The translations under genes and the position numbers were made by a program. This document shows positions 2,964-64,000 of a DNA stretch of 64,000 nt, piece by piece. The DNA lies in assembly GCA_964370855.1 (NCBI GenBank), contig CAYJMF010000001.1, positions 133,167 to 197,166 on the forward strand, written 5' to 3'. The DNA comes from an uncultured Planctomycetota bacterium (GTDB taxonomy: Bacteria; Planctomycetota; JAJSAM01; JAKLKS01). Below the pieces are notes generated by a model. It had not been told where the DNA came from. It saw nothing but the letters and a program-made list of their open reading frames with translations, and did no database searches. Numbering within the stretch: position 1 is the stretch's first letter; each line of letters starts with the position of its first letter.

Positions 2964-5900
2964 CTACTCCACGCGCACGACCCCGCCCGCCGGCACCTCG
3001 AACTCCCGAACCACCGTCCAGCCCCGCGGGTCGTTCCACGAGGTGGACACCTTCGGAATGCGGCGGACGAGCCGGACGCGACCCGCGGGCATCCGGGGGA
3101 CGGCGAACTTCCCGTCCGCCCCCGCCGTCACGACGGCGGAGGCCCAGCGCCCCCCCTCCCCCTCCCACACGCAGGCGAAGGGCGCCAGCGAGGCGTCGAC
3201 CGTCCCCTCCACCCGGCCGAGGGGGAGCTCCAACATCCACGGGTTCTCCCCGGGCAGGAGTTCCACCGCGTCGAAGACGCGGAGGATCCCCTCGGGACCG
3301 CCAAGCGCCACCCGCCACGGGCCCGGAGCGGCGGCGGGAATCGAAAAGACCCCGTCGGCGCCGAGGGTGGCTGTCGCCGGGATCGCGGCGTAGGTCGCGT
3401 CGGGAATCGCGTCCACGGGGGAGAGGAGCCCCGCCGTCCAGCCCGCCGCGCCGCCGGGACCCTCCACGGACAGCCGCCCGCGGAGGACCGCCACCCCTTC
3501 CCCCGTCAGGTCGAGATCGCGCGTGACGGTGCGCCCCTCCTCCACGGCGCAGTTCCACCGGAACTCGCTCGTGCCGGGCCCGAAGGCCCCGCCGTCCCGC
3601 GCGGGCACGAGGCGGTCGTACTGCTGGAGGATCCAGGGCCCGGGGAGGAGCCCCTCGAAGCGGTAGCGCCCGTCGGCCCCCACGCGGAGGGACCGCGGTC
3701 GGGCGTCCCCGCGGTGGAGGGCCACGATGACCCCGTCGGGGCTCCGCCCCGCCGGCATCCGGACCTCTCCCGTGAGTGTCCCGCCCCGCCCGAGGGGAAT
3801 CTCGATGCCGGACACGCCGCCGGCGGGATCGAAATCGAAGGGCCCCGCCTCCGCCGGCGCGAAGCCGTCGGCCTCGACGCGGACCACGTATCGACCGGCG
3901 TTCTTCAGCGGCAGGGTGAACGCCCCCTCCGGTCCGGAACGCGCCTCGGCCTTGGGGTCGGGGTACCAGCGGAGGGGGAGCCCGTCCACGGTGGCCTTGG
4001 ACCCCGCTCCCACGACGGACAACGCCGCCACGCGGGCCCCGGGCACAGGGCTCTCCCCGTCGAGAACCCGCCCCTCGAGGGCGGCGACGGGATCGAGAAC
4101 GCACTCCACCGCGTCGGGCCCGGTGAGGGGGTCGAAGGGGCCGAGTTCCCGGTCCGCGAAGCCGGGGGCGCTCACCTCGATCTTGAAGGGGAAGCCCGGC
4201 GCCAGGAACTCCGCGGTGCCCTCATGATGCTCCCCCGGCGGGACGCCGAAGAAGGAGTCAAAGCGGACCGCAGCGGGAGTCAGGTGGGCGCGCCACGAGA
4301 TGACGGGCTCCCCGGTCCGGCTCCTGATCGAAAGTGCCACGCGGCGCGGCGCCGGGAACCTCATCTCGACGTCCCGATCCCCGGGATGGAGAGGCCAGGC
4401 GAGGGATGCTCCCCAGCGCCGATAGGGGTCCTTCACGAGCAAAGTGACCGTTCCCTGGTAGGCGGTGGGTATGCGGAACCGGCCGTCGGGCCCCCTATCC
4501 ACCTTCTGCGTGTTCAACCTGCCGGGTGCCTCGATGTGGGCGGAGAAGTCCAACGGATCCTTCAGGACGGTTCCATCGGGTGCCAGGACTCGCCCCTCCA
4601 CCCAGTCCTCGGGCCGCTCCGTTTCGATGCGAAGGTCCGTCCGCGCCTCCGTCCCGGCGCCGACCTCCACGGGATCGCTGCGCCCCGCGCGGTAGCCCGT
4701 ACGCCCCGCCCAGAGGTGCACCGTGCCCGCGGGCACGCCCTCCAGCAGGAACCCTCCCGTCCCGTCCGTGGCAGCGGGAACCCCGTGCGTGAGAATCTCC
4801 CGCCCGAGGAGGCGCCGCTCCTCGACGGGGCCCTTCGCACGTTCCGTCGCCTCCAGCCCGACCCACGCATCGGCAACCGGGGCGCCCTCCCCGTCGAGGA
4901 CCCGGCCGGCGATGGAGCCACCGGGACCGAGGGGGATGTCGCCGAGGGCCAGTTCCCGCTCCGCCACCACCCTGACGGCGAGGGCCCGGGTCTCCCTCCC
5001 GACGGCGGCCACGACCAGGGTGACGCGGTACTCCGTCTCCGGCCGCTTCCGCCATCCGGCCATGGGCGGCAGGGCGACGGCGAGCCGGCAGACGCCGTCC
5101 GGCCCCGTCCGCGCGCTCCCCTCGCCGTCCCCGGGCAGGATCGAGATCCGGGCACCTTCGATCGCCCTCCCCGTCTCCTCCACCACGCGCCCCGTCACCG
5201 TGAAGGGGATGCTCTCCGCCTTGAAGGAGGGTCCGCGCGGCTCGACGGGGGCGATGGCCGGGGGGGCGAGGGCCCCGGTTGAATCCCCGGGAGTCGGCCC
5301 CTTCCCCCCGGTCCCCTCCCCAAGAGCCGGGTCCGCTGTCCTATGGGGCCGGGGGGAATCCCCCGGCCCCCGCCAGAGGAGCCCCGCCGCGATAAGCACG
5401 CCCCCCGCCCCCCCCCCCGCCTTCGCCGCGGTCCCCATGAGAAGCCCTCCTCCCGTCGCCGCCGCCGCGGCCCCTCCCGCGGTTCCGGCCGCGGTCGGTA
5501 CTCCCTGTTCGCGCGCCAGCGGCAGCACGATCGCCATCCACGCTGCGCGATTCCCGCCGTTCTCCGCGTCGAGCCGCTCCCGAAGGAGTTCGAGGGCCCG
5601 CTTCAGCCGCCAGCGCACCGTCCCCTCCGGCGTTCCCTGGCGCCGCGCGATCTCCACGGAGGACATCCCCTCGTGGAAGCGGAGGAGGACCGTCGATCGA
5701 AACGGCTCCTCCAGGCCGGCGACGAGGGCCGCGAGCCGGCGCGCCGTCTCGAGGCGGGACGCCAGCTCCTCCGGCGACGGAAGCGGGGAGCGCTCCGGCC
5801 GGGCGGCGGCCTCCTCCCTCCGCTCCCTCCGGCCCGACTCGCGGAGGTCACGCCTGCGGAAGTTGCGCAGGACCGTGGCGAGCCAGGGGCGGACCGGTCC

Positions 5901-6056: not shown

Positions 6057-6152
6057 CCTCGAACATCATGCCGCCGGGGGCGGGATCGTTGGCGGCCGCA
6101 TCGGAACGGCCGGGGTGAAGAGGGCGGGCCGCCGTGGTAATCTCGGGGCATC

Positions 6153-6899
6153 GTGGCCACGGCGACCCGACCCCGTCCGGATGCGGCGCGCTTCTCCTCC
6201 ATCGAGGACCCCCGGGAGATTCCCGCCTACGGAATCCCGGAGGCGGCCCTCTACCTGCGGATCCCCCGCGCCACGCTCCGGTCCTGGGTGTTCGGACGCC
6301 CCTACCGCGTGAAGTCCGGGGCGGCCCGGTTCGAACCTCTCATCCGGCCCGCCTCGGAGGACGGGGTGCGGCTCCTGTCGTTCATGAACCTCGTCGAGGC
6401 CCACGTCCTGTCCGCCATGCGCCAGGAGTTCGGAGTGGACCTCGCCGCCGTTCGACGGGCCCTCGATTTCCTCGAGAAGAGGAGGCCGTCGAAGCATCCC
6501 CTTGCCGACAGGTCCTTCGAGACGGACGGGCAGGACCTGTTCATCCGCGAGCTCGGACAGCTCGTGGCCGCCTCCGACGACGGCCAAAGGGGGATGCGCG
6601 AGGTCCTCGACGCGCACCTGAAGAGAATCGTCCGCGACGAGCGGGGCGCGGCCCTGCGCCTGTTCCTGTTCACGCGGGGCGGGGTCCACGCGCCCGACGC
6701 CCCGCGGGTGGTGCTCGTGGACCCGGGGGTCTCCTTCGGCCGCCCGGTACTGGCGGGGACGGGCATCCCGACCGCCGTGATCGCGGAGAGGTTCAAGGCG
6801 GGGGAGGCCATCGCCGACCTGGCCGCCGACTACGACCGGAGCCCCGGGGACATCGAGGAGGCCCTCCGGTGTGAGCAGTCCTTCCAGCGGGCCGCCTGA
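6153..6899 (+). CDS. HTH + DUF433 domain protein (antitoxin-like)
   Basis: The N-terminal part has an excisionase/MerR-like HTH (IPEAALYLRIPRATLRSWV). The C-terminal 'GRPVLAGTGIPTAVIAERFKAGEAIADLAADYDRSPGDIEEAL' matches the DUF433 pattern. Confidence 0.75.
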   Translation: MATATRPRPDAARFSSIEDPREIPAYGIPEAALYLRIPRATLRSWVFGRPYRVKSGAARFEPLIRPASEDGVRLLSFMNLVEAHVLSAMRQEFGVDLAAVRRALDFLEKRRPSKHPLADRSFETDGQDLFIRELGQLVAASDDGQRGMREVLDAHLKRIVRDERGAALRLFLFTRGGVHAPDAPRVVLVDPGVSFGRPVLAGTGIPTAVIAERFKAGEAIADLAADYDRSPGDIEEALRCEQSFQRAA

Positions 6900-7290
6900 C
6901 GAACCGGTCTTCTGCATCGACGAGGCCCTCGGGAAGAGGGTCGTTCCCGACGCCCTCCGCACGGCGGGGGTGCGCGTGGAACTCCTCATCGATCACCACC
7001 CGCGGGGGACGGCCGATGCCCTGTGGCTCCCCGATATCGGCCGCCGCGGGTGGGTGGTCCTGACGAAGGACAAGAACATGAAGCGCCGCCCCGCGGAGCA
7101 GCTCGCGGTGGTGAGGAACGGCGTCCGCGCCTTCTCCCTCACGACGGGCGACCTGACGGGACCGGAGATGGCGGACGCGTTCCTCCGCGCGATGCCGTCG
7201 ATCCGGAGGCTCCTCCGGCGCCACCCCGGCCCCTTCATCGCCTCGGTGACGCGAGCCGGACGCGTGGAGATCGTCTACCCGGCGGTATGA
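6871..7290 (+). CDS. PIN-like / DUF5615 (Mut7-C-like) domain protein, putative toxin partner of DUF433
   Basis: GTG 6871 overlaps the upstream gene by 29 nt. 'VFCIDEALGKRVVPDALRTAGVRVELL.. ADALWLPDIGRRGWVVLTKDKNM' fits the DUF5615 pattern (..DE.L..l...L...G..v.... D..i...a...g.vlvTkDkdf). Confidence 0.65.
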   Translation: MSSPSSGPPDEPVFCIDEALGKRVVPDALRTAGVRVELLIDHHPRGTADALWLPDIGRRGWVVLTKDKNMKRRPAEQLAVVRNGVRAFSLTTGDLTGPEMADAFLRAMPSIRRLLRRHPGPFIASVTRAGRVEIVYPAV

Positions 7291-9613: not shown

Positions 9614-12600
9614 ATGACCGGACGCGGCGCCCTCCTTGGCGGCGGACTGCTCGCCCTCGCGATCCTCGGGGGCGTCGTCCTGTACCTCGACGGGAAGACG
9701 GAACCCCCGGTGCCGGGTCCCGCCGCACCCGGGGCGCCCCACGCCCCCGCTCCGGCCTCGCCCTCCCCCGCCGCACCCCCGCCCGACGCCCCCGCGGCGC
9801 CGCCCCTCGAGGGGGGCCCCGGCGCCGTCGTCGGACGCCTCGTGCGCGGTTCCCCGCCCACCCCCGTCCCCGGCCGCGTGACCGTCGCCGGCCCCGGCGG
9901 CGCCGCGGCCGCCGCTACGGTGGACGCCACCGGCCTCTTCCGCCTCGCCGGCCTCCCCGCCGGGACGCCGCTCGCCTTCGAGGCGACGTCACCGGGCCTC
10001 CTCCCCCACCGCCTCCCCTGGGTGCGCCTCGCCGCGGGGGATCCCCTCGACCTCGGCGACCTCGCGCTCGGCGCCGGCACCGCCGTCGCGGTGGAGGTCG
10101 CCGACGGCCGCGGGCGGCCCATCTCCGGCGCCTCCGTCACCCTGCGACGGTGGCCGGCGGGGGCTTTCCTGGGCTCGGTCCCCTCCGAGTACCCCGAGGA
10201 CTCCGCCGTCCCGCCCTCCCTCCGGGCCTCCACCGGTGCGGAGGGTAGGGTCGTCCTCGAGGGGACCCCGCCGGGCCCGTGGAGGGTCGAGGTCGCCGCC
10301 GCGGGGTTCGCGCCGCGGGAGGAGTCCTTCACCGTCGTGGAGGGGCGGGCCGCCGCGCCCCTCCGCTTCCTCCTCCTCCCGGCCCTGGCCCTCGCCGGGA
10401 GAGTATCAATCTTTGATACACCTGCGGAGGGGGCGGTGGTCGAGGCCGTGGAGCGGAACTTCATGCGCCGGGTCCGCTCGCGGCCCGCGGACGCCGACGG
10501 CGGCTACCTCCTCGAGGGGCTCGACGCCGGGCGGTGGACCCTCTCCGTGTGGCCGACGCCGGACACGGAGGTCTGCGTCGGCGGCCTCGACCTCCCGGGC
10601 CTCGATCGGTTCGACATCCGCCTCCCCGCGGGCGGGCGTGTCCTCGGCACCGTGCTCGACGACGCCACCGGGGCTCCGGTCCCCGGCGCCCTCGTCACCC
10701 TCCGCACCGACGGGGCGGGCTTCCTCGATGACTCCGCGGCGACGCGGACCGACCCCGACGGGCGGTTCTCCCTCGACCACCTCCCACCCGACGTTCCGAA
10801 CATCACCGGGTTCTCCGTCACCGCCACCGGGTTCCTCGACTTCCCCGACGGGCGGTCGGAGCCCGTCGTCCCGGAGGCGGCCCTGTTTCCGGGAACCGCT
10901 GATGGGATCGTGGTCCGCCTCCGCCGCGGCGCCGCGGTGGTCGGGAGGGTGCTGGATCCCGAGGGGCGGCCGGTTCCCGGGGCCCGGGTCTCCCTCTTTT
11001 CATCGATTGGCGGAGGGGAGAGTGGTTTCTCCACCCCCGCCCTTGCCGACGTGGAGGGAAGGTGGCGGCTGGAGCCGGTGGAGCCGGGGACGGGGATCCT
11101 GCTCGTGGCAGCGCCGGGCTTCTGCCAGGAGGAGTTCCCCGCCGATCCTGCCGCGGCGCTGTCCACGGGGACGGCCCCGGCCTCCTGGACCGTGGAGGTG
11201 CCGGCCTCCGGGGAGGCGCGGAAGGACCTCGTCCTCTCCCGCGGGGGCGCCATCGAGGGAACGGTCGTGGACGCCGACGGGGCGCCGATGGCGGGCGCGG
11301 CGATCTCCTGCCACCCGGAGGGGAGATGGGACGAACTCGGGACCGCCGGCCCCTCCGACGGGGAGGGGCGGTTTCGCGTCGCGGGGGTCCCCTCCGGTCG
11401 TGCCCTGGAGGTGTCGGCGTCCCTGCCCGACCGCCCCGACGGCCGGTCCGAGCCCCTCACCCTCGGCCCCGGGGAGACGAAGCGCGATCTCCGGATCGTC
11501 CTTCCCGCACCGGCAGCCCTCGCCGGGATCCTCCGGCGGGAGGACGGCACCCCGCTCCGGGCGCCGCGCCTCAGGATCGTGGACGGGGAGCCCGAGGACG
11601 GTGCCCTCGATCCGATGATCCTGGGGATGGCCGCGTACCGCCCCGTGGCCCCCGACGGGAGTTTCCGCGTCGAGGGCCTGGACGCCGGCACCTGGACGCT
11701 GGCGGCGGAGGACGAGGGGTGCGCCCTCGCCGTCGGCCCCGTGGTGGTCCTCGGCGAGGGGGAGCGGCGGGAGGAACTCGAGGCGATCCTCCCCGCGGGG
11801 ATGTCCATCGCCGGCCGCGTCGTGGACGGGAAGGGGGCGCCGCTTCCCGGGGCGGTCGTTCTCGTCGCGAGGGTGTTCGAGAAGTACTCCACCGCGAGCG
11901 TCCTCTCGGACCTCCACGCGCCGGCGGCCTCGGCGATCACGGGCGAGGACGGCGCCTTCCGGAAGGAGGGGCTCCCTCCCGGGCCCCATTCCGTCACGGT
12001 GCGCGCGGACGGCACGCGGGAGCGTTCGGTGGAGACCCCGGCCGGGACTGCCGACCTCCTCATCGTCATGGAGAGCGGATTCTCCGTCGCGGGGAGGGTC
12101 GTGGACGCCGAGGACGGCCGCCCCGTGGCCGGGGTCCGGGTGACGGCCCGGCCCCGGGGACCCCGCGGTTTCAGCGAGGCGCGGGAGACGGTGAGCGGCG
12201 GGAACGGGGAGTTCCTCCTCGACGGGCTTCCCGAGGGCGGCGTGGACCTCCGGTTCGACCCGGAGTCGGGGGGGAAGGTCGGGGGGTACGGGGCGAAGAC
12301 GGTGCGGGGCGTGGCGGCGGGCACTTCCGGGCTCGAGGTGGCGCTCCCGCGGGGTCTCGCAATCGCGGGGAGGGTCGTGGACGAGGAGGGGAGGGCGATC
12401 GCCTCCGCCCTCGTGATCCACGCCGTCGGGAGGGGCGACGACGGCGAGATCCTGTTCGCCACCGTCACCCGGGAAGGGAGCGTCGACGGGTCCTTCCTCG
12501 TCGGGGGCCTCTTGCCGGGCACGTACTCCCTCACCGTATCGAGTTCTCCCGACTACCTGTCGGCGACCGAGCGCGGCCTGCGGTCAGGGACCGAGGGCGT

Positions 12601-18006: not shown

Positions 18007-18023
18007 GTATCAGATTATGATAC
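18007..18023. repeat. GTATC-N7-GATAC palindrome, copy c
   Basis: GTATC agattat GATAC (extended arms aGTATCA/TGATACt). It lies in the convergent gap between paralogs 14322..17957(+) and 18117..21938(-). Coordinates were checked against the C-terminal codons of ORF 18010..18411(-). Confidence 0.6.
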
Positions 18024-32157: not shown

Positions 32158-32174
32158 GTATCCCCTTATGATAC
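32158..32174. repeat. GTATC-N7-GATAC palindrome, copy d
   Basis: GTATC cccttat GATAC. It lies 28 nt past the stop of the sigma-fusion gene (32202) and about 100 nt upstream of the ATG of 30242..32059. On the minus strand it overlaps a TACAAT hexamer (32155-32160). Coordinates were checked against codons of ORF 32056..32628(-). Confidence 0.6.
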
Positions 32175-32201
32175 ACTTGACGCTATCGACGACGCCCCCC
32201 C

Positions 32202-54679: not shown

Positions 54680-55651
54680 CTACAGGAGATGAGCCGAGGA
54701 CGCGACCGTCGAGCGGCAGTCCTCCAGGGTCGGAACGCTCCCGACGATCAGCCGGCGCATGCTCTCGAGACCTCTGCGGAGTACCTCCTGGGAAGGGTGG
54801 CGGCCGTCGAACGCCGGGCTGGCGGCGTACCCTCCCGCCGGCCTCGGCGTGGTCGGCCACCCCCACTCGAGACTGATGCGCTCCGTGTCGGCCGCCGTCT
54901 CCACGGCCACGCTGCACGAACCGCCGAGGGCTCCCCGGACCTCGACATCCCCCAGGAGCTGGTGGATGTCATAGAGGTGGCGGGCCGCCCTTGCCAGTTC
55001 CGCTTCGGAGCCCGGGAGGCTGCTTGCCAGATGGTGGATCACCGCCAGCTTCTCGAACAGGGTGCGATGCGGGCGTAGTACCCAGATCGAGACGGGAGCG
55101 AACTCGTCGAAGGCATCATCGGGCTCCCCCAGCGATTGAACGGCGTGCATGCCCAGGAGGGACCGGATCTCGCGCGTCTCCCGGGGATCCGGGGCACCCC
55201 GGATGCCGAGCTCCAGGAGCACGCCGGGCTTGACCGCCGAGGCGTCGTACTTCGCCGGGTACCGGTAGCGCACGTTCCGGTGGATTCCCCTCGAGGCCCC
55301 CTCCAGCACGACATCTCCCTCAGCGAGACCGAGGTCCTCCCCGGCGCGGGTACACAGGGCCTTGAGGAGGTTGTCCACGCTTCCCCTGCCGAACGAGGCG
55401 TCCTTCCGTCGCGTGATGACGAGCAGGATGTCCACGTCCTCGGAGAAGCGTTGGATCAGGCCGTATCCCTTCGAAAGGCTGGTGCCGCCCTTGAAGACGA
55501 CATGGGCGTCGCCGATCCCGGCAGCAACGCTTCGAAGGAGCTCGGTGATCCAGTAGTCCTTCTCCACGAACTCCGCCGGAAGCCCGAGTGCGTCGGCGGC
55601 GGCTCCCACGAGCGCGAAGTGGTCGTCCGGGCGGTCGCGGAGTTTCGCCAC
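54680..55651 (-). CDS. abiEii: AbiEii/AbiGii-family nucleotidyltransferase toxin (DUF1814)
   Basis: 'FVEKDYWITELLR', 'VFKGGTSLSKGYGLIQRFSEDVDILL' (NTase G-S..D-x-D core) and the ~320-aa length. It starts 4 nt after the abiEi stop. Confidence 0.85.
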   Translation of the reverse strand: MAKLRDRPDDHFALVGAAADALGLPAEFVEKDYWITELLRSVAAGIGDAHVVFKGGTSLSKGYGLIQRFSEDVDILLVITRRKDASFGRGSVDNLLKALCTRAGEDLGLAEGDVVLEGASRGIHRNVRYRYPAKYDASAVKPGVLLELGIRGAPDPRETREIRSLLGMHAVQSLGEPDDAFDEFAPVSIWVLRPHRTLFEKLAVIHHLASSLPGSEAELARAARHLYDIHQLLGDVEVRGALGGSCSVAVETAADTERISLEWGWPTTPRPAGGYAASPAFDGRHPSQEVLRRGLESMRRLIVGSVPTLEDCRSTVASSAHLL

Positions 55652-55654
55652 GGG

Positions 55655-56287
55655 TCACGATCCTCCGGCAGCCGGTTCCGAATGGAAACCGGCCAGGCCC
55701 TCGACGAGCCTCGCGAACCGCTCCCGGAGTGCGGGCTTGCCCTCCCCCTCGACCGCCTTCCGCATGCGCACGGGACGGAGGAGCCCCGTGGCCCGGAGCC
55801 TCGCGACCCTGGCCACCAGGGTGGGCCAGTCGGCTTCCACGGTGCCGGGCCATTCGCGGAGCACCTCGAGGAGGGCGATCTCCTCGTACCGGAGTCCGAG
55901 ACGGCGGAAGTTGTTGCGGGAGTGGAATTCCGCTCCCGGAATCCCGGCGGGAGCCGGGCCGACGATGGCGTAGACGGCCGTCGCGGGCACCTGGGTCGAG
56001 AGACCGAGCGCATGGCTCGCCGACCAGCCCGCCGGACCGACACCGCGGTCCCCTGCGACGACCCGCACGATGTCGTCCACCCTCGGTCGACCCGGGCCGA
56101 AGCGGGAGGGCACTCCCTTCCAGTAGAGCCCCCTCCGGACCCTCAGCAGGGTCCTGTCCTGGCCGGTGAGGCGGGACAGGTGGGACTCGACCGCGGCCCG
56201 GGAGCCTGCGAACTCCGTTGTCCGGAAGAAGGCTCCCCGGGGGGCCTTCCCGACCTTCTCGCGGATGGTGGCGGCGATGGTCTTCAT
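55655..56287 (-). CDS. abiEi: AbiEi-family antitoxin/transcriptional regulator
   Basis: The N-terminal winged-helix-like region is followed by '..LLRVRRGLYWKG' (the RGlY motif typical of AbiEi_4-type proteins). It lies immediately upstream of abiEii on the same strand. Confidence 0.8.
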   Translation of the reverse strand: MKTIAATIREKVGKAPRGAFFRTTEFAGSRAAVESHLSRLTGQDRTLLRVRRGLYWKGVPSRFGPGRPRVDDIVRVVAGDRGVGPAGWSASHALGLSTQVPATAVYAIVGPAPAGIPGAEFHSRNNFRRLGLRYEEIALLEVLREWPGTVEADWPTLVARVARLRATGLLRPVRMRKAVEGEGKPALRERFARLVEGLAGFHSEPAAGGS

Positions 56288-56325
56288 TGCAAGGAAAGTA
56301 TATCAAATAACTTGCACATGGTCAA
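56288..56325 (-). promoter_or_regulatory. abiE promoter with inverted-repeat operator; near-leaderless
   Basis: On the minus strand: TTGACC (56325-56320) - 17 nt - TATACT (56302-56297), only about 10 nt upstream of ATG 56287. Inverted repeat tgcaag (56288-93) / cttgca (56311-16) brackets the -10. The sequence is locally AT-rich. Confidence 0.45.
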
Positions 56326-60461: not shown

Positions 60462-62407
60462 ATGGGGTGCGGACGGGCAAGATGTCCTGCCGTGGACCGC
60501 CCCGACCCCCGACCGATCTACGAGGAGCGCCTCGGCGCGCTGCGGGCGCTGCGGGCGGATCTCGATCGCCTCGACGACCGGTTCGCGCAGTCCCGGCTCG
60601 CGGTCTTCGTCGCCCTCCTCGCCGCCGCCTGGTGGGCCTTCGTCCGCGAGGGCCCCGCCGTCCTCGCGGGCGCGGCGCTCCTCGGGTTCGTGTCCCTCAT
60701 CGTCCTGCACGCCCGGGCCATCGCCCGCCGCGACCGCGCCGACCTCGCCATCGCCCACTTCGAGCGGGGGCTCCGCCGCCTCGACGACGCGTGGACCGGC
60801 GAGGGCTGCGTCCGCGCGGATCTCTTCCCTCCGGACCACCCCTTCGCCGCGGACCTCGACCTCGCCGGGAGGGGATCCCTCATGGACCTCCTCGGCACCG
60901 CGCGCACCCGCGCCGGGGAGGAGACCCTCGCCCGCTGGCTCGCGGAGCCGGCGGACCGCGCGACGGTGCTCCCCCGGCAGGGGGCCGTGGAGGAGCTGCG
61001 CGGGCGCGTGGACCTCCGCGAGGATCTCGCCGTCCTCGGGGGGAGGATGCGCGCCGCCGTGGACCCCGCGTCGCTCCTCGCGTGGGCCGGGCGGCCGGCC
61101 CCCCTCGCCGCGGCCGCGGGGAGGGTCCGCTTCGCCGCCTTCACCGGGTCCGCCGCCGTCGCCGCCGCGGGGATCGGCGCAGGGGTGGATCTCTGGAGCG
61201 GCTGGTGGTTCATCGGGGCCCTGGGTTTCTCCTGGGCCCTCTCCTCCGTCTTCGCGAAGCGCATCGGGCCCCTCATGGAGGAGGTCTCCCGTCCCGCCGA
61301 GGAGTTCCTCGTGCTCAGGGACACGCTGCGGCGACTCGAGGCGGAGCGGTTCGCCGCGCCGGCCCTCGTCGATCTCCGCGAGCGCCTCCTCGAGGACGAC
61401 CTCCCCGCCTCGGCCCAGGTGGACGCCCTCCTCCGCCGCGTCGGCTGGCTCGAGGCCCTGAGGAACCAGTTCGCCGCCCCCCTCGTGGTGCCCCTGCTCC
61501 TCCACCTCCACGCCGCCCTCGCCGTGGATCTCTGGCGCGCCCGCCACGGGGCGGCCGTGGCGCGCTGGCTCGCGGCGCTGGGCGAGATGGAGGCCCTCGT
61601 CGCGGTCTCCGGCTACGCCTTCGAGCACCCCCGCGATCCCTTCCCGGAGATCGTCGATGGGGAGGCCCTCTTCGAGGGGCGCGGGCTCGGGCACCCGCTG
61701 GTGCCGGAGCGCGGGTTCGTGCGGAACGACGTCTCTCTCCGCGCCGGGCCCCCGGGGGCGGCGCGCCTGCGCGTGAGCGGGGGCCACAAGTGGGGGGTGA
61801 GGCCGCGGGGGCGGGCCGGGGGGGGGGGGGGGCGCCCCCCCCCGCCCCCCCCCCCGCCCCCCCCGGGGCCCCCCCGCTCCTCCTCGTCAGCGGCTCCAAC
61901 ATGTCGGGGAAGAGCACGCTGCTCCGGACCGTCGGCATCAACGCGGTGCTCGCCCGGTGCGGCGCCCCGGTGCGCGCGGCGTCGCTGCGCATGGGCCCGC
62001 TCCGGCCCGGCGCGACGCTGCGGATCCACGACTCCCTCCACGACGGGCGCTCCCGGTTCATGGCGGAGCTGGAGCGGCTGCGCGTGCTGGTGGACCTCGC
62101 CGCGGGGCCGGCGCCGCTGCTGTTCCTCCTCGACGAGGTCTTCGCGGGGACCAACTCCCACGACCGCCGCATCGGCGCCGCCGCCCTCCTCGCGGCGCTG
62201 GTGGAGCGGGGGGCCGTGGGCCTCGTCTCCACCCACGACCTCGCCCTCAGCGAGGCCGTCGCCCCCCTCGGCGCGCGCGCCGCGGAGGTCCACTTCGAGG
62301 ACCGGCTCGAGGGGGGACGCCTCGTCTTCGACTACGTCATGCGCCCCGGCGTCGTCAGGCGCAGCAACGCCGTCGACCTCATGCGCGCCGTCGGCCTGCC
62401 GGTGTAG
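60462..62407 (+). pseudogene. MutS-family (domain V ATPase) paralog, out of frame by one nucleotide within a G15 tract
   Basis: The N-terminal ~450 aa come from ORF 60462..62546 (TM helices 'LAVFVALLAAAWWAF', '..LGHPLVPERGFVRNDVSL'). The C-terminal 175 aa come from the frame of ORF 58634..62407 ('LLLVSGSNMSGKSTLLRTVG' Walker A, 'LFLLDEVFAGTNSHD' Walker B, 'VSTHDL'). The two frames meet in the G/C tract at 61818-61875. One extra G would fuse them. Confidence 0.7.
61818..61875. repeat. Homopolymer-rich tract G15-CG-C9-G-C11-G-C8-G4-C7
   Basis: Run lengths and coordinates were derived from the two supplied translations (..RAGGGGGRPPPPPPPPPPGPPR.. and ..GRGGGGAPPPAPPPAPPGAPPLLL..), anchored on ORF coordinates. 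Confidence 0.9.
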
Positions 62408-62520
62408 GGGACGTCCTCCACTTTTCTACTTTTCTGTGGATAACTCCGGAGCGGGATTGCCGAAGGCAGTCCCGCTCCGGAGTTATCCACAGAAAAGTAG
62501 AAAAGTGGAGGACGTCCCCT
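62406..62520. repeat. 113-115 nt near-perfect palindrome (50-bp perfect arms) with two inverted consensus DnaA boxes
   Basis: Left arm 62407-62456, ggggacgtcctccacttttctacttttctgtggataactccggagcggga, is the exact reverse complement of 62470-62519. The 13-nt centre ttgccgaaggcag is itself tgcc-gaa-ggca. TGTGGATAA lies at 62435-43 and TTATCCACA at 62483-91. Each arm carries the tandem ACTTTTCT x2. The element abuts TAG 62405-07 (+ gene) and the stop at 62522-24 (- gene). Confidence 0.95.
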
Positions 62521-62521
62521 T

Positions 62522-63172
62522 CTACAGGAGGGTGATCACGCCGTAGCCGAGGTCGATCACGCCCTCCGCCGCCAGTTCCCGGAGGACCGGGTGGAGGGTC
62601 TGGCGGGTCACGTGGAGGAGGTCGGCGATGTCCTGGCGGCGCACCTCGATCTCGGGGCGGTCCTGGAGGCGGAACTCCTCGCGGAGGAGGATCAGGACCC
62701 GGTCCCGGAGGGAGCCCGCCCAGGAGCCGGCCAGGGAGGAGGCGGTGCACCAGTCCATGCCGGCGCTCGTCAGGGCGCCGAGGAGGACGGAGCGGGGCGC
62801 CTCCTCGATGATGGCCCGCAGGGGGAAGACCGCCGCCGTCGTCGGGACGACGGCCTCGTAGCGGAAGAGGTTCTCCCCGTGGTGGAGGGCGTCGAACCCG
62901 AACCAGCGCCCGTCCCCGGCCAGGAGGCCCGTCGCCCGCCGCCCGCCGCCAGGGCCGCGCCGTGTCCCCCGCACCAGCCCCTCGATCACGAAACCGACGC
63001 GGGGATCCGGGCGGGGAGGCCGGGGGCCCGCTCCCCGGCCCCGGATCAGGACCTCTCCCTTCTCGAAGGTGCGTTCCGGGAAGAGGGCGAGGAACCGGGA
63101 CATCTCCCGGGAGTCGGGGAGGAGCAGTTCTCTGTCGAAGTGCACGGGGAACCTCCGGAAACGACCCCGCAT
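62522..63172 (-). CDS. Crp/Fnr-family transcriptional regulator
   Basis: The N-terminal cNMP-binding-like beta-roll ('FEKGEVLIRGRG..', 'FVIEGLVRG', 'GDGRWFGFDAL') is followed by a C-terminal HTH, 'RQDIADLLHVTRQTLHPVLRELAAEGVI'. Confidence 0.7.
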   Translation of the reverse strand: MRGRFRRFPVHFDRELLLPDSREMSRFLALFPERTFEKGEVLIRGRGAGPRPPRPDPRVGFVIEGLVRGTRRGPGGGRRATGLLAGDGRWFGFDALHHGENLFRYEAVVPTTAAVFPLRAIIEEAPRSVLLGALTSAGMDWCTASSLAGSWAGSLRDRVLILLREEFRLQDRPEIEVRRQDIADLLHVTRQTLHPVLRELAAEGVIDLGYGVITLL

Positions 63173-63318
63173 GGACGGACTCCCCCATTGTAGGGTCCCC
63201 CGTGCCTCCGGGGATCACGGGTCACGGAAGTGCGACGGCCCCCGCGCGGGTGGCGCGGAGGCCGTGCCGGGGAAAGGAGGGGAGTGGCCCGCCTCCTTCC
63301 CCTTCGGGAGAGGTGCCG

Positions 63319-64000
63319 TCAGTAGCGGAAGCGGATCCGCAGGCGGTCCACGTAGGGGACCGGGTCGGTCCGCTTCTGTCCGTCCTTGAGGGTGAAGGAG
63401 ATGCGCAGGCGGTAGAACTGGTAGCCGTTGCCGTTGAGGATCGGGGCCACGTCCCGGATCCCCGTCACGGGGTCGCGGAAGACCTCCCACTGGCTCGCCC
63501 TGGACGTGTCGCTGGAGAAGCCGGTGGCCGCGTTGACGGTGGAGACGTCGGCCTTCCCGAAGCTGGTGGAGTCCTCGACGGCCATCTGGATCTCGTACTT
63601 GATGGAGCAGCCGGGGAACCACTGGTCCACGAAGTCCTGCATGGTGAAGGGCTGGAGCTCGGGGCCGAAGACCCCGGAGTTGAACCAGGTGCTCGTGAAG
63701 ACCGACGGAGCGTCCGCCGCCGTCCCCGTCGGGTCGAAGACGCCGGTGGCGTGGTCGGGCACGAGGGTGGCGGGATTCACGCCGGCGATCCCGGCGACGT
63801 TGCCGTCGCGGTCCTCGAGCTGGATGTAGCCCGCGCCGCCCTTGCCGCCGGCCCCCTGGTACCCGTTGACGTAGGGGGTCCCGCCGGCGCCCCCGGAGAC
63901 GTCGACGTACCCGCCGGAGACGTCCAGGGCCTCGTTGGCGTAGACGGCCACCGCCCCGCCGGCCCCGCCGCCGCCGGCGGCGCCGTAGTAGTAGTAGCCG
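63319..64000 (-). CDS. C-terminal part of a larger Gly-rich secreted/surface protein (continues beyond the window)
   Basis: The frame stays open upstream of listed ORF 63319..63951 to the window edge (..GYYYYGAAGGGGAGGAVAVYANE..). Gly-rich 'GGAGG/GGKGGAG' repeats are followed by a globular beta-rich domain ending 'YVDRLRIRFRY'. Confidence 0.65.
   Translation of the reverse strand, partial: GYYYYGAAGGGGAGGAVAVYANEALDVSGGYVDVSGGAGGTPYVNGYQGAGGKGGAGYIQLEDRDGNVAGIAGVNPATLVPDHATGVFDPTGTAADAPSVFTSTWFNSGVFGPELQPFTMQDFVDQWFPGCSIKYEIQMAVEDSTSFGKADVSTVNAATGFSSDTSRASQWEVFRDPVTGIRDVAPILNGNGYQFYRLRISFTLKDGQKRTDPVPYVDRLRIRFRY

Follow-up and report, generated by a model that had tools for sequence, protein, structure and literature searches.

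Introduction

The Correia elements of Neisseria are bacterial miniature inverted-repeat transposable elements (MITEs), 100-150 bp long, non-coding and intergenic, bounded by terminal inverted repeats (TIRs) and co-transcribed with their neighbours. Their TIRs fold into an RNA hairpin which is cleaved by RNase III, their termini can provide stop codons, and the copies, which duplicate a TA target and carry an IHF site and promoters, are substrates for rearrangement. Another class is formed by the repetitive extragenic palindromes (REPs), imperfect palindromes of 20-40 nt with a stem of 5-13 bp and an unpaired GTAG or CGTC tag (PMC3733652), and by the REP doublets forming hairpins (REPINs), where two conserved ends stand inverted around a variable spacer that still pairs (PMC3116915). 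REPINs are located less than 20 bp from the 3' ends of open reading frames (ORFs), and REPs have been described as terminators and stabilisers at the same time (PMC3116915, PMC3733652, bioRxiv 10.64898/2026.03.23.713779). Here we describe a palindrome at positions 62406-62520 of a 64,000-nt stretch of contig CAYJMF010000001.1 (the window, meaning the whole stretch that was analysed), which is an ordinary piece of chromosome of an uncultured planctomycete-like bacterium. The palindrome is probably, though by no means certainly, the best-preserved copy of a family of small hairpin-shaped interspersed repeats of 100-113 nt in this genome, similar to MITEs and REPINs. The family is previously undescribed, and belongs to a known class, the bacterial interspersed palindromic repeats.

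Structure of the palindrome

Over 50 nt, the arms (62407-62456 and 62470-62519) pair without a mismatch, and A62406 and T62520 add a 51st, outermost pair. They are separated by a 13-nt centre, ttgccgaaggcag, holding a T/G mismatch and then tgcc-gaa-ggca, which forms a stem of 4 bp around a GAA loop. With the flanks counted, the repeat finder gave arms of 67 nt at 91%. The left TIR, GGGGACGTCCTCCACTTTTCTACTTTTC (62407-62434, plus strand), is the 28-nt module that defines the family; it contains two copies of ACTTTTCT, as does each arm, and was aligned to the ends of copies 2-6 with nhmmer E-values of 1e-6 to 1e-9. The right TIR (62492-62519) is the same sequence on the minus strand at 28 of 28 positions. 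Next to the left TIR lies the sub-terminal module CTGTGGATAACTCC with TGTGGATAA, the reverse complement of the DnaA-box consensus, at 62435-62443 (plus strand), mirrored by TTATCCACA at 62483-62491 (plus strand); these are the only such 9-mers of the window, even when one mismatch is allowed. The interior (62444-62482, plus strand) is a G+C-rich hairpin with an 18-bp stem, a GAA loop and one U.G pair, and is specific to this copy.

The palindrome has a G+C content of 55%, falling to 32% in the 25-nt core of the arm, against 72-78% in the window. As RNA, its predicted fold reached -123.9 kcal/mol (z -21.9), and as DNA it reached -74.3 (z -21.4); neither value was reached by any of 200 shuffled sequences. 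The inner 18-bp stem alone folded at -38.2 kcal/mol (z -9.1). A single arm alone gave z-values of +0.1 to +0.5 and so did not surpass shuffled sequence, and neither did the other convergent gaps in the window. No Rfam family reached its gathering score; only microRNA hairpin models appeared below the threshold (25.6 bits against a cutoff of 60), as is expected of any long hairpin. The palindrome fills the gap between two convergent genes, from the TAG of a MutS-like gene to the TAG of a Crp-like gene. All these structural features, i.e., the arms, the centre, the tandem repeats, the 9-mer boxes, the A+T-richness and the gap-filling position, were found in the sequence as the original prediction had stated. 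CRP/FNR operators, integron attC sites and protelomerase sites were also considered and rejected, as their half-site spacing, R'/R'' motifs and central dyad, respectively, do not fit the palindrome.

A family of related repeats

It had been claimed that nothing else in the window resembles the palindrome. This holds inside the window, where neither a second copy nor a comparable inverted repeat was found, but not beyond its right end, where five related loci follow within 20 kb: three hairpins, a copy that is hybrid or decayed, and a solo end. The palindrome of the window is referred to as copy 1 (62407-62519, 113 nt, perfect arms). Copy 2 was found 10.5 kb away, in 10 kb beyond the Crp-like gene which had been fetched for analysis of GC skew. 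Copies were identified by a Hamming scan and an nhmmer profile of the arm, and a further 10 kb gave two more loci. The three additional hairpins are 100-113 nt long. Copy 2 (L024 128-240, 113 nt, -106 kcal/mol, z -17) and copy 4 (L024 6807-6906, 100 nt, -108 kcal/mol, z -18) are near-perfect, and copy 5 (L027 8991-9100) is imperfect. Copy 3 (L024 ~2340-2426) has a good right end, carries a left end of the copy-5 subtype and no longer folds (z ~0), and the solo end, copy 6, is one end only (L027 11485-11508). In total, the family comprises at least six loci within approximately 31 kb. No copies were found in the remaining 62 kb of the window, in 8 kb to the left of it, or in an unlinked piece of 5 kb.

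All copies have a common end of approximately 28 nt, GGGGACG(y)(m)C(y)C(r)ACTTTyC.(m)ACTTTy, summarised in the terminal-repeat profile GGGGACGNNCNCNACTTYYC. This end was found 11 times, with nhmmer E-values from 1e-4 to 1e-9 for ten of the ends and a weak match for the solo end. The genes beside the copies are unrelated, and next to them the 28-nt terminal sequence is held in common at 71-89% identity while the interiors are replaced: copies 1 and 2 contain CTGTGGATAACTCC and a G+C-rich stem, copy 3 contains GGTGGATGACTCC, copy 4 GCGGGCACGGACCGTCTCCGCC, and copy 5 yet another sequence. Although the interior sequence differs among the copies, it is self-complementary in every hairpin copy. None of the 100-113-nt copies has an ORF of its own. 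Taken together, the conserved inverted ends, the replaceable interiors, the occurrence of solo and hybrid ends, the absence of coding capacity and the unrelated neighbours are the anatomy of a non-autonomous interspersed repeat. Among the roles listed in the original prediction, a MITE-like mobile element or multi-copy REP/MITE comes closest.

The same loci bear on the simplest alternative, namely that an inverted duplication, arising in situ and only once through fold-back or template switching and seeded at TGCC-GAA-GGCA, made the palindrome, with neither family nor function. The perfect arms, the asymmetric centre with its own 4-bp stem, the replacement of the Crp-like tail exactly at the edge of the arm, and the uniqueness of the element in the window would all agree with such an event. 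It is contradicted by the homologous ends at five more loci of the same genome; the palindrome is therefore not a local one-off, and we consider this origin extremely improbable, while template switching may still keep the arms of each copy identical.

Two irregularities were noted among the copies. Firstly, the hybrid copy 3 (L024 2330-2430) combines a right end of the copy-2/4 subtype with a left end like that of copy 5 and the solo end (GCGCACCACTTCTTC), which suggests recombination between copies. Secondly, short tandem duplications starting with the terminal CCCC are present at the right ends of copies 2 and 4 (L024 237-263 and 6903-6922), CCCCTATT three times and CCCCGCCTTT twice, and could be due to slippage or imprecise end processing.

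In comparison with the described systems, the family agrees with MITEs in its size of 100-113 nt, well inside their limit of ~500 bp, and non-coding nature, in the TIRs shared by 11 ends, and in its occurrence at several unrelated sites, i.e., six loci, all within the ~31 kb. Its ends are not REPs: they are not imperfect palindromes of 20-40 nt with an unpaired GTAG or CGTC tag, since an arm by itself does not fold. The arrangement is nevertheless that of a REPIN, an inverted doublet with conserved ends and a variable spacer forming one hairpin. Like REPINs (Bertels & Rainey 2011, PMC3116915; Di Nocera et al. 2013, PMC3733652), the copies are units of approximately 100 nt with two conserved inverted ends; a less conserved spacer pairs into one long hairpin that is kept across copies; they are extragenic, non-coding and located less than 20 bp from the 3' ends of tandem or convergent ORFs; and decaying singlets occur. 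A dual role of terminator and mRNA stabiliser, as proposed for REPINs, is a further point of likeness. The family differs from REPINs in that its ends are not short self-folding stem-loops with a tag, in that no REP-associated tyrosine transposase (RAYT) was seen in the ~95 kb examined and only six loci are known, all in a single ~31-kb stretch, and in arms that are perfect over 50 nt rather than bulged.

With the Correia elements the family shares the size range, the terminal inverted repeats, the lack of coding capacity and the intergenic location. It differs from them by inconsistent TA flanks (5 of 10 ends) and by fully palindromic interiors; no sequence similarity was found, and no parent insertion sequence is known for the new family.

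The closest relative, named 'Planctomycetes bacterium' (L012), whose MutS-like protein is 67% identical, has a TIR family of its own, GGTGATACCGTACCCGGCACGAATCAGCAGCG, unrelated to the present one (L012 3039-3136, 4917-5072 and 7966-7992). One of its copies is palindromic and lies in a convergent gap (z -9.8), another has a non-palindromic interior of 95 nt, and a solo end stands just upstream of the start of the MutS-like gene; the TGA stops of the flanking genes lie inside the TIRs. From this second family, such repeats seem usual in the lineage.

Independent assemblies of the locus

At least 23 short-read contigs, originating from different ENA samples, code for exactly the same Crp-like protein, and ten of these loci were fetched. 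In nine out of ten independently assembled contigs the 113 nt are identical and the centre is oriented alike, with coverage up to 131x. The tenth contig (L008, 7x) has the second arm swapped for poly-C/poly-A junk (3790-3850), and the second arm of copy 4 is likewise swapped for homopolymer junk in L004 (2880-2925). Both L008 and L004 are low-coverage assemblies, and the junk runs consist of poly-C, poly-A or poly-T. The strain is clonal, without a single real nucleotide polymorphism in 2.1 kb among 11 sequences.

Another disturbed region lies inside the MutS-like gene. In the window its frame is broken by a quasi-palindromic tract of G15 and C runs (61757-61880), just ahead of the Walker A motif. 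The tract differs in every assembly and has runs of N; L006, where the gene is clean and encodes 600 aa, lacks it, as does the 600-aa protein P0014. The frameshift of the window is assembly junk and not real; no palindrome was seen at this site.

The short-read assemblies thus do hold artefacts, and both the homopolymer junk in place of the second arm in L008 and L004 and the G/C junk in the MutS-like gene could raise the suspicion that the palindrome is itself a fold-back product of assembly or sequencing. However, the junk varies from one assembly to the next, whereas the palindrome is invariant, base for base, in nine of the ten assemblies and in the window, with unique flanks on both sides, and an artefact is incompatible with related copies that carry mirrored differences. 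The palindrome is not a fold-back artefact, because it is identical in nine of ten independent assemblies of one clonal strain, and this explanation can be regarded as virtually excluded. The hairpins of the family do break short-read sequencing and assembly, which calls for caution in the annotation of this metagenome-assembled genome.

Position at stop codons

The palindrome's first base is the G of the TAG of the MutS-like gene (62405-62407), and its last base falls 2 nt short of the stop codon of the Crp-like gene (62522-62524). The same closeness was observed for the whole family: eight of the ends point towards the 3' end of a gene, and each of these begins 0-8 nt past the stop codon. 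The element overlaps the TAG of the MutS-like gene, of a DUF7948 gene (DUF7948-1087), of a sigma-54 activator gene and of an ABC permease gene; it begins 2 nt after the stop of the Crp-like gene, 3 nt after the TGA of a second DUF7948 gene (DUF7948-1042), 4 nt after the stop of a 762-aa gene and 8 nt after that of a 688-aa CarboxypepD_reg gene. The genes that adjoin the six loci are unrelated to each other (MutS, Crp, ABC permease, sigma-54 activator, two DUF7948 and two CarboxypepD_reg). Approximately eight of the nine operon-terminal gene ends in the ~31-kb stretch bear a copy, whereas elsewhere in the window about 20 such ends all lack one.

The flanking dinucleotides are TA..TA for copy 2, TA..TT for copy 1, TA..GC for copy 4 and AA..AT for copy 5. 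TA is present at five of ten ends, and in four of these five it is the TA of a TAG stop codon. TAG is the commonest stop codon of the window (12 of 22), mostly before GG, while TA makes up only 0.6% of the dinucleotides. As the TA is mostly the stop codon itself, no duplication of a TA target can be claimed. As a separate observation, the stop codons of the confident ORFs in the window are distributed as TAG 12, TGA 10 and TAA 0, with TAG nearly always before G(G), and such a predominance of TAG is unusual at 74% G+C.

Symmetry of the arms

Within each of the copies 1, 2 and 4, the outer 28 nt of one arm match those of the other at 28 of 28 positions. Between these copies there are differences at 8, 7 and 4 positions, and all 19 are mirrored on both arms; no difference confined to one arm was found in the outer 28 nt of the three copies. 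Copy 5 has a mirrored variant of its own, GCGCACCAC. Such symmetry needs one of three things: a fold-back intermediate for each new copy, homogenising in place by template switching, or very strong selection for pairing. According to two papers (PMC8604942, 10.1101/2023.04.19.537475), template switching homogenises the arms of inverted repeats and can make a perfect hairpin, or restore pairing over the full stem, in a single replication event. It would explain why the arms are identical within a copy yet different between copies. It is, however, a mutational mechanism and not an element family, and leaves the shared ends at six loci unexplained. Copying through a fold-back would likewise explain the 19 mirrored differences. 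One could imagine a mobile element propagated as a hairpin, with a single-stranded fold-back intermediate in which one arm templates the other, targeting the first bases past stop codons, using the DnaA box as a host-factor site in one sub-family, and depending on no classical transposase or RAYT; we offer this as a speculation and think it improbable. The symmetry of the arms is unusually strict.

The few mismatches between arms follow a pattern as well. There are five, one in the centre of copy 1, three in copy 2 and one in copy 4, and every one of them is a T opposite a G when read on the sense strand of the gene whose TAG is overlapped by the element (MutS, DUF7948 and ABC permease). In the mRNA these positions are U.G wobbles, which are paired in the RNA folds, while the opposite strand would have A.C mismatches. 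With a chance of one in two for each mismatch, five out of five corresponds to p ~0.03. The strand concerned in copy 1 differs from that in copies 2 and 4, which argues for a constraint at the level of the transcript rather than of the replication strand. Together with the placement at stop codons, the wobble pattern points to a possible role in the transcript.

These observations raise the alternative of a non-mobile functional module, a stop-adjacent RNA hairpin serving as terminator, insulator or protein-binding 3' untranslated region (UTR), which would have spread locally by duplication, template switching or gene conversion. All gene-proximal ends within 8 nt of a stop, copies at nearly every operon end of the stretch and at none elsewhere in the window, and wobbles confined to the sense strand are what such a module would be expected to give; it would need neither the transposase nor the clean target duplication, which were not found in the examined sequence, and the cited single-event homogenisation of arms could supply the hairpins. 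It accounts less well for 28-nt ends that are conserved beside unrelated genes while the interiors are swapped, since this is the usual TIR pattern of mobile DNA, or for the solo end of copy 6 and the hybrid copy 3, as expected of decaying mobile repeats. Further, the stem is not followed by a U-tract, and the analogous family of the relative includes a copy with non-palindromic interior, which is typical MITE anatomy. We judge the module possible but rather unlikely, and retain the interspersed repeat as the preferred reading.

DnaA boxes and termination

A titrating or regulatory site for DnaA had been among the suggested roles. As a rival reading, the palindrome would be comparable to datA or DARS, which are chromosomal DnaA-box sites, or be a part of an origin, with the two inverted boxes as the functional core. 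The two perfect TTATCCACA boxes are the sole ones not only in the window at up to one mismatch but also in all loci of the first set examined; by composition such a 9-mer is very rare at 74% G+C, and in copy 2 both TGTGGATAA and TTGTCCACA are retained with unchanged spacing. Yet the two boxes represent one occurrence that is mirrored by the palindrome; neither copy 4 nor copy 5 nor the solo end has the module, and in copy 3 it is degenerate (GGTGGATGA). As the module is present in only half of the family, the boxes do not define the element. Neither dnaA, dnaN nor a cluster of boxes is present nearby, and the GC skew does not switch at the palindrome but stays negative for another 9 kb, by which an origin of replication was rejected; nothing in the analysis supports a single-strand origin either. 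The proposal of DnaA titration or regulation thus went unsupported, and a DnaA-binding function is highly doubtful. The outside end of Tn5/IS50 also carries a DnaA box, and the likeness consists in a consensus 9-mer in the sub-terminal part of an inverted-repeat end, so that a host-factor site is possible by analogy. The box here differs from Tn5/IS50, datA and DARS in that it is not conserved across the family and not part of a cluster.

A bidirectional terminator, another suggested role, was not borne out in its canonical intrinsic form. The scan of 61900-63400 gave no intrinsic terminator, and a scan for sigma-70 promoters was also empty. After the full stem the MutS transcript continues with UUCUAC and the Crp transcript with UACACC, so no U-tract follows; T-tracts are found in the 5' arm, upstream of the end of the stem, in both reading directions. 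As in bidirectional terminators, a symmetric G+C-rich hairpin fills a convergent gap and can be folded by both transcripts, with an inner 18-bp stem at -38 kcal/mol, but the whole stem has 50-55 bp in place of 5-15 bp and the T-rich tracts are in the 5' arm.

Flanking genes and genomic setting

The MutS-like gene (60492-62407, plus strand) encodes the Pfam domains MutS_III and MutS_V, and its native TAG (62405-62407) is the one overlapped by the first G of the element. The C-terminus ...AVGLPV* is kept in all homologues, and the ending GTGTAGGG is also present in both relatives whose DNA was read; the stop codon is therefore ancestral. The Crp/Fnr-like regulator gene (62522-63172, minus strand, HTH_Crp_2), with its TAG 2 nt from the element, encodes a protein that ends with ...GYGVITLL*, while all 11 aligned homologues run on for at least 13 residues. 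Homology breaks off at about 62528, and no remnant of the tail was found nearby by tblastn with the tails of the homologues. A reading of the right arm as the native tail of the Crp-like protein in another frame (GDVLHFSTFL, compared with GDAxxLxxxL as the motif of the family) was rejected, as it requires an insertion of 8 nt, and the codons TTT, ATA and ACT are atypical where GC3 exceeds 90%.

In one relative (L020), a Crp-like orthologue with 53% identity is located upstream of the MutS-like gene in the same direction. The closest relative has the same GTGTAGGG end, followed by neither palindrome nor Crp gene. From these two arrangements, the tail-to-tail junction of MutS and Crp is derived. 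A comparison with an empty site through homologues of the Crp-like and MutS-like genes failed, with synteny lost beyond these two relatives.

No gene for a tRNA, a transposase or an integrase is present in the window, which contains many genes for ECF-sigma factors and giant CarboxypepD_reg proteins. Upstream of the Crp-like gene, 63319-64000 is the 3' end of a large hypothetical gene that continues just beyond the right end of the window, and which in different assemblies of the clonal strain (L001-L010, 3000-5900) was called at 888, 900, 923 or 930 aa or was split; this is probably another assembly-unstable region. Among the other genes of the window, an AbiEii nucleotidyltransferase toxin gene adjoins a DUF6088 (AbiEi-like) gene, forming a type IV toxin-antitoxin pair (54680-56302, minus strand). 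Two further features were recorded under 2564-2900 and 6141-7290: a small PhdYeFM-type antitoxin gene behind the A+T-rich repeat ATTGCATATGCATTTGCACATGCATGAATCA, with no adjacent toxin gene called, and a pair of HTH_66/DUF433 and PIN_10 genes. An A+T-rich palindromic motif, GTATCA-N5-TGATAC, occurs at two exact sites and one variant (TGTATCCCCTTATGATACA; 10403-10419, 18007-18023 and 32158-32176), where none is expected by chance, and the sites are among just seven A+T-rich patches of the window. The motif looks like an operator common to the genes of the giant CarboxypepD_reg proteins.

Discussion

The most probable explanation of the palindrome in our view is a copy of an interspersed repeat. 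From the family properties described above we infer mobility: the family would spread, or would once have spread, as a non-autonomous element of MITE/REPIN type by means of an enzyme encoded elsewhere in the genome, and a hairpin-templated step during or after the spread would keep both arms identical. At copy 1, recombination or imprecise insertion probably deleted the tail of the Crp-like gene, and probably also produced the tail-to-tail layout of MutS and Crp. Once inserted, the element would form the transcribed 3' UTR of the gene at whose stop codon it lies, and the transcript would fold into an RNA duplex of approximately 50 bp that may block 3' exonucleases as well as transcriptional read-through. 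In the case of copy 1, the duplex would in addition keep two convergent mRNAs apart. Long RNA duplexes are natural substrates of RNase III, and a duplex of ~50 bp should be cut by this enzyme. The earlier suggestion of an RNase III target or 3'-UTR hairpin is plausible in this respect and gains some support from the wobble pattern, with the role in RNA remaining at the level of a prediction. The DnaA-box 9-mers of the sub-family module would be incidental, or a host-factor site at most.

Several observations weigh against a mobile repeat with a role in RNA. All copies occur in one ~31-kb stretch and none in the other ~64 kb sampled, and a functional 3' module that was duplicated locally or spread by gene conversion would fit this clustering equally well. 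No transposase, RAYT (Y1_Tnp) or integrase was found among the ORFs and called genes of the ~95 kb examined, nor any parent element with the same ends and a transposase in the same ~95 kb of fetched genome. No consistent target-site duplication was found across the copies, and the clonal population offers no empty-site polymorphism. Searches of GTDB genomes, JGI metagenomes and IMG/VR with exact 20-29-mers of one copy gave no relatives of the element. These pattern queries, made up of 23- and 29-mers from the interior, a 21-mer from the terminus, a gapped pattern of both ends and a degenerate 20-mer of the terminal repeat, preceded the family consensus; blastn against plasmids and phages gave nothing relevant. 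As for the RNA, a perfect duplex of 55 bp could equally destabilise the mRNA.

Interspersed palindromic repeats of this kind are not known to have been described before in the lineage, where the nearest sequenced relative is 67% identical in its MutS-like protein. The mirrored arms of the present family, its starts at or within a few bases of stop codons and its strand-specific U.G wobbles bear on how hairpins of the REPIN/MITE type are copied and on the role they may have in the 3' UTR.

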